Assembly: GCA_047404215.1 (NCBI GenBank)
Contig: JBDOIV010000005.1
Location: 9,485 to 73,484 of the forward strand
Direction of reading: 5' to 3'
Length of the DNA: 64,000 nucleotides
Origin: Rickettsiales bacterium
Lineage (GTDB): Bacteria; Pseudomonadota; Alphaproteobacteria; Rickettsiales; UBA1997
The notes beneath the pieces were generated by a model. That model was not told where the DNA came from, made no database searches, and saw nothing but the letters and a program-made list of their open reading frames with translations. The position numbers and the translations under genes are program-made. Numbering within the stretch: position 1 is the first letter of the stretch; every line of letters begins with the position of its first letter. Positions 11,625-42,960 of this stretch are shown in pieces.

Positions 11625-11653
11625 TTGACTTTATTTAGTATACGTTGTATAAT
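11625..11653 (+). promoter_or_regulatory. Near-consensus sigma-70 promoter (TTGACT-N17-TATAAT), ~300 bp upstream of the 1190-aa ORF
   Basis: TTGACT is at 11625-11630 and TATAAT at 11648-11653, with 17-nt spacing. Confidence 0.5.
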
Positions 11654-11880
11654 AAATATATAGGTTAAAAAATATATTTTCTTGATGCTTCTTGTGAGAA
11701 GATATTAATCTATGATGGTAAAAATGCGGTAACTAAAGCGAGCTATTGTTGCAAAACTGGTCATTGGATAATCTTGCGTCAAATAATTGGGATTGCATCG
11801 CTATCTCTTTGCGAAGAGAAGTGACAATGCTACTGCTCATTATTTATTGTATAATTATGCTACAGAAGAATATTTTAAAA

Positions 11881-11909
11881 TTGACTTTATGTTAAAATTG
11901 TGATATTAT
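11881..11909 (+). promoter_or_regulatory. Near-consensus sigma-70 promoter with extended -10 (TTGACT-N17-TGaTATTAT) for the 1190-aa ORF
   Basis: TTGACT is at 11881-11886, TG at 11901-11902 and TATTAT at 11904-11909. The ATG is at 11953. Confidence 0.55.
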
Positions 11910-11952
11910 GGTAATATAATTTAATTAATGTTAAATAAAAAATTTATAAAAA

Positions 11953-14900
11953 ATGAGTAAAGGCGGAGGTTTTTTTACGACAATAAGGGGTAAGGACAAG
12001 TCCCCTCCTAAAAAAGTAGCGAGTGAAGGAGGGGGTTCTGTTGGTATATCTTCTGATCCAGTAAGTCCTGAGGCCTTAAAGAGGGTTGAAGGAGGCATTG
12101 ATGCTAGAATTGCGGCAGCAAGAGCAAGCTTGGCTGGCTTAGGGCTGCCATCACATTTGCCGAGTGCTCCTCCTGAAATCGCTTCGGCTAGAACTGCCGT
12201 CCGTAGGGGTAGAAAATTACCTCCTGCACCAGTTGCCGCTGGAGGTGCTAGAGATGCGCGTGATGCCGTTGCTATGAGACCAGTGGCAGCAGTATCTGGT
12301 GTTGTTGATTTAAAGGCCAAAGCTAAAGTAATTAAAGATGTGATATATAATAAAATGATGAGTGAGAGAGGTATTCTCGAGCCTCATCTAGATACTAATG
12401 CGTATTATCAAATCAGGGAAATGATTCGGGGTTTAGAAGCTGGAGCATTTAGTATTGACCAGTTGAGTTCTGGCTTATTGCAATCTAGTGTTAGTAAGGG
12501 TCGTGACTTTTTATTGACGGCTTCTGGTGCCGGAGACAACCTAAAATTAAGTACCAATCTTGTAAGAAGGTTGTATCCGATAGTTGTTAGCTTAGAAAGG
12601 GCGGGACGTTTCAATCTAGGATCTTTTATTGCAGGGGCCGAATTGCTTGCTAAAGATTCGAGAAACCATTGTGGATTGAATAAATTAAGCGGTAAGGCAG
12701 ATGATGATTTCAAGAAAACAGCTAAGCTATTTATTACTGAAGAAAACTTAGCAATTTTACATGACTTTTTTGAAGAGAGAAAAGGGGTAAATGATAAATT
12801 AGGAAACCTGTATAATATAATAAAGTTTGAAGACTTCATCTTGAGGCTAATGAATAAAAGATATAAAGAAATTTATCTTGATGGTAGGGCTCTGGTTGGT
12901 CGCGATGATGCACCTCTTCCTAGATTTGATAGCGATGTTCAAGCAAGAGAGTTTATGAATAATTTAGCCACTAAAGGAGATGCGAATAATTATTATCAAG
13001 AATATTTGACTCCAGAGGAGATGATGCTTGCTCCTTTGGTTTTGCCGCAAGCTGCTTCATTAATTATCGGAACCGGAAATAGATCTGATCAATGGGGTGC
13101 TGCGCAAGTATACAATGAATTTATACAGTCGGTTGATGTTGCGTTATTGTCTTATCCAGCTGCGGCGGAATATCGAGACGGTCGTACCGCAAGTTATGAT
13201 TTATTGTTTACTACTTTTTTTAACGGTGCAGTTGATCGTACGGGCAATCATGATAAGACAAGAAAACAAGTATTACAGGAAAATAAGGCCTTGATGAAAG
13301 CTGCTGCAAAAATATATGGCGCAAATCATAGTTTGAGTGGTAACAGAGTCACGTTGGAGCCAATGAGTGCAAGGCATAGAAAAGGATATGTAGAAATGCC
13401 TCATCAATTAAATATCGCAGCTTACAAAGCTCGTACTAAAAATACTTTGAAACTAATATTGTTGGCAGCTGATCATGATATGGAAAAATATGATTTAGGT
13501 ACCACTTTTTCTCTTAAGGGTGTTGGCATGGGTGCATTTAGCTTTACAGGATCTGGCAAGGTTTTTGAGCAACTTACAAAACAGGCGCTGCAAGAAGTGA
13601 TGGGTGAAATCACTCTAAGTCATATTAAAAAAATTAACCTTATTAGTTGGCCTAGTGTATTTAGGTCTGTAAAAGATGAAAGAGAGCGTGCGGTATATGA
13701 AGGTGATAGCACTGTAAAAGGAGTAAAGGTTGTCGAGTCAAATAGACCGGAATCTTTAAAGAAGGTTGCTGGCGAAGAGGGGGTTGCTGCTACGGTTTAT
13801 TGTGGTGATTCTGGATCCTTGGTTGGTAATGAAGGTAATATAGGTCTTGCAAGGGGTTCTAGTGACGACCCTGCGATGCAATATAGTATGTACGACCCAC
13901 AATTAATGGACCCATATAGAAATCATTATCTTAATCAAGCTGAGGCGATATCGATAGTAAATGATCGTGGAGAAGTTTGTAGTATTGATGAAGCTTTAGC
14001 AAAATTAGGTCGAGATAGGAGAGTGGGATCGCGGGGCGAAGGTGCTGCAGTTAAAAAAGTTGGCAAAACTGGTGGTGGCTGGTTTAGAAGAAGAGGGGGG
14101 GGATCTGAGGAATCTGCGAAGCCAGCAATTTCAGCCCCTGCAGATTTTAGGAGGGTTGATGACGCTTTACACTTAGAATCTCTTGCGAAATATAAAGATA
14201 ATAAGGAGGGTTTATTAAAATTATTGCAATATTCTTGGCGTTTACCTGAGGGTGTCGAGAAAGAAATAAAAGAGGCTTTTGAAGGGTATAAGACAGGAAA
14301 GATTGGTGATACGAAAAATGCTGATGTAAGAAGGAGCTTTAGCAATCAAATAAAAGCCGCTTTGGTTGATAGACTGGAAGTTCTTGATCCTGATTTTAAA
14401 GATGGATATTATAAGATTGTGCCACTTGGACATCGGATAGAACCTGCACAATATAACGCTGTCAAGCTTGGCGTTAATAAATTTCTTGCTGCAGAAGTTG
14501 TTAAGTCGCCCGCAGGCGGTCGAGCAGGTCACAGTACTGGAGGTGGTCTAGGATATGTTGCTGCAGAAGATTATGGCGCCAGAGGTGGTCGAGCAGGTTA
14601 CGATGCTAGAGGTGGTCGAGCAGGTCATGGTACTAGAGGAGATCGAGCAGGTCACAGTACTGGAGGTGGTCGAGGATGTGTGGCTGCGGCCGGATACGAT
14701 GCTAGAGGTGGTCGAGGATATGTTGCTGCGGCCGGATACGACGCTAGAGGTGGTCTAGGATATGTTGCTGCAGAAGGTCGTGGTGCTAGAGGAGTTTCGG
14801 CTAGGCCGCGCCCTGGCTTTGATCCTCGCCCTATTACAGCCTCGTCTGCGGCTAGTTCTAAACCACCACTTCCCATTAAAGTCTCTGCAATGAATGCCTT

Positions 14901-42508: not shown

Positions 42509-42695
42509 ATTTTGTCACTGGAATAAATTTTAGCTTTGGACAGGTATTGGTTATACATGCCCACCGCTAGAAATTCATCCCAGCAGCAAAATTACATTTT
42601 GCCTTTGATTACCTAATGATCCGATCAAGAATTACTCATACATGATCTCATCAATAAGCGGTTTATAAATAAAACCATATTGAGCTCTTGCGGCG

Positions 42696-42731
42696 ATTCT
42701 TATAAAAAATAATTTTATTTTTTATAAGAAT
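42696..42731. repeat. Perfect 16-bp-stem inverted repeat (ATTCTTATAAAAAATA-attt-TATTTTTTATAAGAAT)
   Basis: I checked the palindrome base by base. It lies ~190 bp downstream of the ftsK stop and has no adjacent T-run. Confidence 0.8.
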
Positions 42732-42931
42732 GGGGATCCCTACGACTGTGGGGTGCGAATCGTTTCGCGTAAAAATTATCTTATGGCGCAGATAACACTT
42801 TTTTAATTTATCTTAAGATAACTGCTCATGGAAGATGAGAGTTTTGACCTTATAAGGGTGCAATTCCTTTTCCTTGAAGGGTCGTCAGCCGAAGGCTGAC
42901 GGGGTAGTTATACGAATAGTAAAATAACTTC

Positions 42932-42960
42932 TTGACTAATATAAAAAAACAGTGTACAAT
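42932..42960 (+). promoter_or_regulatory. Sigma-70 promoter (TTGACT-N17-TACAAT) upstream of tadA
   Basis: TTGACT is at 42932-42937 and TACAAT at 42955-42960. It shares CAGTGTACAATAATA with the promoter at 23042..23069. Confidence 0.5.

Follow-up and report, generated by a model that had tools for sequence, protein, structure and literature searches.

The DNA considered here (the window) comprises 64,000 nucleotides of contig JBDOIV010000005.1, positions 9,485 to 73,484 of the forward strand, from a Rickettsiales bacterium whose assembly (GCA_047404215.1, referred to as G000 in the following) amounts to 1.43 Mb in 114 contigs with 36.9% G+C. Our subject is a set of near-consensus sigma-70 promoters, which precede three giant open reading frames (ORFs), a small ORF and tadA, all on the plus strand. 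The first giant ORF (ORF1, 11953..15525; 1190 aa; G+C 0.42) encodes a MavL-like ADP-ribosylhydrolase domain, the second (ORF2, 18059..22990; 1643 aa) likewise a MavL-like domain, and the third (ORF3, 23716..27186; 1156 aa; G+C 0.43) is an orphan. ORF1 has no reciprocal orthologue in G005, the closest congener searched (1.37 Mb compared, 687 reciprocal best hits with a median amino-acid identity of 69%), and ORF2 has only partial relatives in G005 and in a further genome, G008; ORF3 was not found in four congeners, its sole relative being a C-terminal paralogue on contig C18. Between ORF2 and ORF3 lies a 145-aa ORF (23160..23597), a core gene for which orthologues exist in G005 as well as in further relatives and which has no match in Pfam or NCBIfam, while tadA (43024-43476) is found further downstream. 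Long accessory ORFs elsewhere in the genome are orphans or feature ankyrin repeats, LRR_6 repeats or an IQ motif, and this set of domains (Ank, LRR_6, IQ, MavL-like) is the usual make-up of the host-interaction proteins of intracellular bacteria.

Six promoters had been picked out in a sequence-only reading of the window, and the coordinates given for them proved to be correct, as did their placement with respect to the giant ORFs, the 145-aa ORF and tadA; five were recovered with the pattern TTGACW-N16-18-TAYAAT and the remaining one, with a TATTAT hexamer, by a promoter scan. All six lie on the plus strand, match the two consensus hexamers at 10-12 of 12 positions and belong to two classes, A and B, which are described below. 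ORF1 has two of them, a distal class A cassette at 11625..11653 (TTGACT-17-TATAAT with the conserved spacer TTATTTAGTATACGTTG and an upstream A-tract; 300 nt to the start codon; class A matrix score 64.7) and a proximal class B-like promoter at 11881..11909 (TTGACT-17-TATTAT with TGn; ATG 43 nt downstream), which have TTGACTTTAT in common, as had been noticed. ORF2 is preceded by a class B promoter at 17942..17970 (TTGACT-17-TATAAT with TGn, 11/12; ATG 88 nt downstream) and ORF3 by a perfect one at 23651..23679 (TTGACA-17-TATAAT with TGn; start codon 36 nt downstream). The promoter of the 145-aa ORF at 23042..23069 (TTGACA-16-TACAAT), which begins 52 nt past the ORF2 stop codon, is of the A2 variant of class A, and that of tadA at 42932..42960 (TTGACT-17-TACAAT; ATG 63 nt downstream; matrix score 22.5) is A2-like; the identical core described for these two was confirmed and spans the 16 nt ACAGTGTACAATAATA. 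An extended -10 element had been attributed to four of the six sites, but the canonical TGn, with TG at -15/-14, one base upstream of the hexamer, occurs only at 11881, 17942 and 23651, whereas at 11625, 23042 and 42932 the TG directly abuts the hexamer (TGTATAAT or TGTACAAT), i.e. it lies one base nearer than in the canonical element.

Within the window, TTGACW-N16-18-TAYAAT has six matches where 0.37 are expected, and none of 100 shuffles reaches this number. The sixth match, beyond those listed before, is a perfect 12/12 site at 50022..50050 (plus strand), situated inside a 141-aa ORF (49955-50380) and 698 nt upstream of groES; it is among only four perfect matches in coding DNA genome-wide, and it may be an internal promoter, or the 141-aa ORF may not be real.

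A genome-wide scan, which the sequence-only reading had recommended, revealed that near-consensus sites are common, with about 190 in intergenic DNA, and that they precede ordinary genes as well. With genes called by us in a crude manner (ORFs of at least 90 aa that start with ATG), the intergenic DNA (222 kb, 32% G+C) contains 58 perfect (12/12) and 131 11/12 sites, compared with 0.3 and 14.6 in dinucleotide shuffles, so that the reservation that equally good matches might occur at random in such A+T-rich DNA does not apply; the coding DNA, five times larger (1.2 Mb), contains 4 and 77. In total, the genome has 287 sites of at least 11/12, including 63 perfect ones, against 2 perfect sites for the reversed pattern. 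Among the 693 genes with an upstream spacer, 36 are preceded by a 12/12 and 87 by an 11/12 site. The sites point towards genes: the ratio of sense to antisense in co-directional spacers is 86:18 here and 74:6 in G005, convergent spacers have almost none, and the distance from the -10 element to the ATG peaks at 30-40 nt. Furthermore, the promoter of the 16S rRNA gene reaches 12/12 and has an A/T-rich tract upstream, those of six tRNA genes reach 11/12, and the promoter scores of 357 orthologue pairs with G005 are correlated (rho 0.45, p 3e-19), as befits sites conserved at orthologous positions. Given these counts, the orientation, the distance to the ATG and the rRNA and tRNA promoters, the sites are real promoters and a property of the whole genome. 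It is well supported that the six sites of the window represent RpoD (sigma-70) promoters, whereas their actual transcription and their strength are inferred.

In their architecture, these promoters resemble those recognized by sigma-70 in E. coli, with the -35 element TTGACA, a spacer of 16-18 nt (mostly 17) and the -10 element TATAAT; class B shares the TGn of the extended -10 (TGnTATAAT), and the A-rich tracts upstream of class A and of the 16S promoter are reminiscent of UP elements. What differs is their density. Perfect matches are very rare in E. coli, whereas there are 63 in the 1.43 Mb considered here. Across 30 relatives, G005 has 69 of them, three to five others have 10-28 and most have 0-4, which is also the range of the reversed controls; perfect TTGACA-N16-18-TATAAT sites thus range from 0 to 69 per genome within a single genus at similar genome sizes.

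Class B, with the consensus cTTGACA-N11-aaAATATGnTATAAT, combines a full -35 with an extended -10 element and usually lies 25-55 nt before the start codon (median 36 nt to the ATG). Its members in the window are the sites at 11881, 17942 and 23651 and the thrS promoter (17473..17500, minus strand; TTGAAA-16-TATAAT with a canonical TGn, 11/12; ATG 31 nt downstream), which is kept, spacer included, in G005 and in the relatives L206, L207 and L208. The genes behind class B are longer (median 444 vs 287 aa, p 1.5e-4) and richer in G+C (median 0.399 vs 0.376, p 5e-4) than others, and the class is more frequent before genes absent from G005 (11.7%) than before core genes (6%, p 0.016); the same consensus of -35 and extended -10 dominates the perfect sites of G005. 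For annotation, the sites can serve as reliable promoter marks in this lineage, and class B (TTGACA-N11-AAAATATGnTATAAT about 35 nt before the ATG) helps to fix start codons and to recognize real orphan genes. The idea that the ORF3 promoter travelled with a paralogue was discarded, given that its likeness to three other promoters ends at the ~30-nt promoter itself, with flanks and 5' coding ends that cannot be aligned; the word GTTGCT that they have in common could be chance among ~150 class B sites. The statement that comparable promoters are missing elsewhere in the window holds for the mltA/ychF region, glmS and probable ppa, where only 8-10 of 12 positions match, but it does not hold for four genes with 11/12 sites on the minus strand, namely thrS, tal (fructose-6-phosphate aldolase/transaldolase; 33955..33983, TTTACA-17-TATAAT), ribD (49524..49552, TTGAAA-17-TATAAT) and purA, whose promoter-like site is distal (63294..63322, TTGAAA-17-TATAAT; ATG 236 nt downstream).

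Class A is of a different kind, a block of 45-50 bp in which the spacer, too, is conserved: aaaaaa..tCTTGAC(A/T)TTTATAAATGA(A/G)CG(T/A)TGTATAATA. The spacer of 16-17 nt comes in the variants TTTATAAATGAGCGTTG and TTTATTTTATATACAGTG, followed by TGTATAATA, and intermediates exist. Conserved positions run from the UP-like tract to about +8, with conservation tapering off on either side, and neither the consensus nor its information profile shows terminal inverted repeats or dyad or direct-repeat symmetry. A weight matrix retrieves 47 copies from the genome, and the looser pattern TTGACW-N11-13-CRNYGTAYAAT has 41 matches against none for its reversed control. The cassette at 11625 is a strong member and that at 42932 a weak one; the site at 23042 falls below the matrix cut-off and is assigned to the class by the looser pattern, its A2-type core being that of 42932. 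The distance of class A to the ATG is usually 50-350 nt, and at several genes, including ORF1, the cassette is the distal partner upstream of a class B promoter. The copies have unrelated flanks, upstream in 41 and downstream in 35 of the 47 cases, and the proteins behind them contain only one paralogous group, a family of five members. For seventeen copies, the gene downstream is a core gene with a different promoter in its G005 orthologue; these genes include ones with the putative names pabA/trpG-like, gcvH, pheA-like, ilvD-like, glyS, dapB and tadA, assigned from N-termini; at the position of the tadA promoter, G005 retains only TTGACTAAT.

Outside this bacterium, the family was found in close relatives only. 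Three class A patterns found no match in 30 relatives, eight congeners included, and position-specific word counts, which were used in place of single-linkage clustering of spacers, a procedure uninformative in A+T-rich DNA, show no class A analogue in G005. Class A is present in the close relatives L200 (MDTB01212159.1), L201, L202 and L204; contigs of close relatives also include Logan contigs from SRR27444409, SRR27444410 and SRR27444434. A metagenome scan for the class A pattern returned one exact copy, on L200, which is ~90% identical to contig C84 of G000, and the A2 variant occupies the orthologous position in relatives with a small-ORF protein of 75-79% identity. The cassette is therefore older than this species. 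A protein search with ORF1 yielded only ORF1 itself, and the promoters at 11625 and 11881 are thus not traceable in relatives. As a separate observation, G005 has an inverted-repeat family of its own, TTGACAAAAA.CCTCTAATTATATCATATCATGTCAA, with at least eight copies that overlap promoter-like hexamers (e.g. at C2:39995 and on C3, C4, C5, C6, C13, C15 and C19 of that genome).

Some class A copies have further repeats in their neighbourhood. A unit of ~150 nt lies directly behind the promoter in five copies (at ~46.7 and 49.4 kb of C11, twice on C88 and at ~3.1 kb of C47) and could specify either a small RNA or a small hydrophobic peptide (MVLAVLYSVFRQK...). Four of these units are divergent from a common flank upstream, and on C11 this flank is the beginning of an LRR_6 repeat gene. 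Short, G+C-rich and partly palindromic dispersed repeats occur in the window at 42696-42778 and 42850-42912, with 5-6 and 3-4 copies in the genome, one of them also in G005, and several such repeats adjoin class A promoters; on C75 (~24.9 kb), a G+C-rich sequence beside a copy of one such repeat takes the place of the expected -35 element of a class A copy. They were considered as an explanation of the class A family as a whole, for which their copies are too few. A tRNA scan behind four class A copies found none, and Rfam identified only a tRNA-Ala in the window, so that no known RNA explains the class A leaders.

The surroundings of class A copies provide the link to gene turnover. On C84 of G000, two direct copies on the minus strand (13066-13093 and 17541-17568) bracket a 1415-aa ankyrin ORF. 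At the same locus, L200 has a single cassette and no ORF, with an upstream flank that corresponds to the far side and a downstream flank that corresponds to the near side of the G000 arrangement; since the flanks match in this way, the crossover would lie inside the cassette, and no target-site duplication is visible at this resolved indel. At a second L200 cassette, the identity of ~93% reaches up to the cassette, the spacer is swapped (A2 in L200, A1 in G000) and homology ends a few bases after the -10 element. In G000 itself, class A copies that neighbour each other on the same strand at up to 6 kb differ less than random pairs do (7.1 vs 11.1 mismatches in 32, permutation p 0.001), and several such pairs bracket accessory ORFs. 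Finally, 19 of the 42 copies away from contig edges start 17-85 nt after the stop codon of a gene on the same strand, and 12 of these genes are accessory.

A complementary picture emerges around the 145-aa ORF. The 23042 promoter and its leader can be aligned across four species (this one, L201, L202 and L204), whereas the upstream DNA cannot, and the class B promoter at 23651 can be aligned across the same species together with ~35 nt of leader. In the place behind the latter, however, this species has ORF3, L202 an unrelated gene, and L201 and L204 an ORF2-like gene, which there lies across the small ORF from its position in the window. Judging from these alignments, 23651 is a conserved slot with different giant ORFs behind it in different species, and each of the two promoters predates the giant ORF beside it or is at least independent of it. 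For these two, the suggestion that the promoters are modules that travelled with the giant ORFs fails, as they are conserved in three other species despite different cargo or upstream neighbours; it survives for class A in some cases, such as a pair of ankyrin-family paralogues that share cassette and leader and the direct copies that bracket the ankyrin ORF on C84.

To account for the observed occurrence, statistics and conservation of these promoters and for the bracketing of one giant ORF, we propose the following scenario, which we consider probable as a whole: the sites are sigma-70 promoters of two classes, of which class A spread by copying and recombination, accompanied by a turnover of its cargo. 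In this reduced genome, promoter strength would be written almost wholly into a near-consensus core promoter. Class B would drive housekeeping genes such as thrS and, somewhat more often, long and G+C-richer accessory genes. Class A would have arisen in the lineage of this species and its close relatives and reached its present number of about 47 copies through duplication and recombination, not through transposition. As the copies are alike, recombination could take place between them, inserting, deleting or replacing a neighbouring gene, and large host-interaction genes (ankyrin, LRR, MavL-like or orphan) would thereby come to lie behind or between cassettes. The class A copies would act as, or at least mark, places at which large accessory genes are exchanged. 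A bolder version, which we offer tentatively and hold to be possible rather than likely, assigns class A a double duty as a strong expression signal and a portable homology arm, through which recombination within the genome and with DNA from related intracellular bacteria would insert, delete and swap large host-interaction genes at expression sites already in place, making it an integrase-free counterpart of gene cassettes. A reduced intracellular bacterium may set its expression levels through core-promoter quality, and it possesses a large and well-delimited family of reused promoters whose copies coincide with places where effector-like genes are gained, lost or exchanged. Should complete genomes bear out the link to recombination, this would represent a simple route to a rapid turnover of host-interaction genes that does without mobile-element machinery.

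Several points weigh against this scenario. The promoters had been described as concentrated at the giant ORFs, and what stands of this is an enrichment that is real but modest, a statistical tendency and not a distinguishing mark. When ORFs of 600 aa or longer are considered, a site of at least 11/12 precedes 21 of 56 non-core but 6 of 47 core genes (p 0.006) and a perfect one 13 of 56 but 1 of 47 (p 0.003), while at a cut-off of at least 900 aa the trend persists without being significant (p 0.16 and 0.08). Overall, core genes (72/397) and genes without a match in G005 (42/240) are equally often preceded by a site of at least 11/12, and with our ORF calls the labels 'core' and 'accessory' as well as the distances are approximate. 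Furthermore, no ORF of at least 90 aa follows 14 of the 47 class A copies, which face the 3' end of a convergent gene and may drive small RNAs, antisense transcripts or small peptides. The evidence for recombination consists of one 7-kb metagenome contig and a few short contigs, and at the C84 locus, a deletion between the copies and an insertion with duplication are indistinguishable. That homology ends at the promoter is partly expected, as a retained gene must keep its promoter, and the conserved spacer could equally reflect the binding of a regulator.

The last point leads to an alternative that we regard as unlikely, namely that a lineage-specific transcription factor has its operator in the class A spacer and that the ~47 sites, instead of being copies of each other, form a regulon that arose by convergent selection. 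This would explain why conservation spans exactly the functional promoter and fades gradually on both sides, and it is in line with the mixture of housekeeping and accessory genes downstream and with the persistence of the small-ORF copy across four species. However, the consensus lacks the dyad or direct-repeat symmetry of an operator, and two rather different spacer variants interchange at orthologous sites in genomes that are ~90% identical. The greater likeness of neighbouring copies and the direct copies bracketing an indel point to descent by copying instead. The motif found no match in the 30 relatives, yet is conserved at the small ORF in three closer ones.

It is also conceivable, if quite improbable, that the giant ORFs were imported together with strong promoters of their own, which would then mark foreign DNA. 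The giant ORFs are indeed richer in G+C than the backbone and lineage-specific, and the one pair of ankyrin-family paralogues shares its cassette along with 72 nt of leader. On the other hand, promoters of these types also drive rRNA, tRNA, thrS and numerous core genes, accessory and core genes do not differ overall in how often they have a promoter of at least 11/12, and the slots at 23042 and 23651 are conserved while the adjoining genes change. Moreover, no unit of promoter plus ORF was found in unrelated donors with the class A pattern, whose single metagenome match comes from a close relative.

Still less probable, in our view, is that class A is a miniature element carrying a promoter and moved by a transposase, in the manner of the Correia elements of Neisseria, ERIC or REPIN. 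Like these short dispersed repeats, which also supply promoters to neighbouring genes, class A occurs in many scattered copies with unrelated flanks, and short G+C-rich palindromic repeats lie beside several of them. Unlike them, it shows no terminal inverted repeats, target duplication or hairpin potential, and its conserved block comprises no more than the UP-like tract and the sequence down to about +8; the palindromic repeats are low-copy elements in their own right, and the single resolved indel has its crossover within the cassette, as in homologous recombination. That the matches are functionless chance products of A+T-rich DNA, for which the low G+C content (37% in the genome, 32% in intergenic DNA) and the merely mild enrichment of weak 9-10/12 matches (88 vs 62.6 in a 20-kb stretch) could be cited, is practically excluded by the window count, the reversed controls, the intergenic excess of perfect sites, the orientation bias, the fixed ATG distance and the conservation across species.

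The closest parallel to the proposed spread of class A is found in putative mobile promoters (Matus-Garcia, Nijveen & van Passel, NAR 2012; commentary PMC3575422), i.e. highly similar upstream sequences before non-paralogous genes of one genome, to which no known mobile element is attached and for which a role in the rapid rewiring of gene expression was proposed (PMC3575422). The underlying screen was confined to positions -150 to -50, with a minimum of 50 nt at no less than 80% identity, and most of the families obtained were pairs (PMC3575422). Class A would fit this published idea of promoter reuse (PMC3575422); it, too, precedes non-paralogous genes, as reflected by the unrelated downstream flanks of 35 of its 47 copies. 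It differs in that its block of ~45-50 nt is at or just under the 50-nt threshold and includes the -10 element, and in that the family has ~47 members, with copies located at gene-content breakpoints and bracketing a giant ORF. Integron cassettes with a resident promoter (Pc) are comparable in function only, in that the promoter slot at 23651 has different genes behind it in relatives. By contrast, no integrase or attC-like site was seen in passing, no dedicated search having been made, and class A forms many dispersed slots instead of one array, at which exchange appears to use the promoter's own homology.

Regarding the host, a Legionellales origin, first suggested by the MavL-like Pfam matches, was rejected, as the best relatives of the threonyl-tRNA synthetase (ThrRS) are alphaproteobacterial, the top one being labelled Rickettsiales; a TTGACA -35 element also fits neither the PmrA nor the CpxR motif of Legionella-type regulation. 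While this ThrRS is 97% identical to its counterpart in the nearest relative, the neighbouring counterpart of ORF1 (L206:2029-3345) reaches only 42-48% protein identity, which reflects either very fast divergence or replacement by a paralogue. In G005, nadE is directly followed by a MavL-like gene without a strong promoter. In the window, nadE and ORF1 are separated by 1.6 kb, of which positions 10300-11580 read like the debris of an MBOAT/AlgI-like and an SGNH-like gene (putative pseudogenes). Lastly, a 27-nt exact direct repeat (17611-17640 and 17716-17747), which adjoins the tRNA-Ala between thrS and ORF2, flanks a ~75-nt segment with two small hairpin-like inverted repeats, and the genome contains only these two copies of it.

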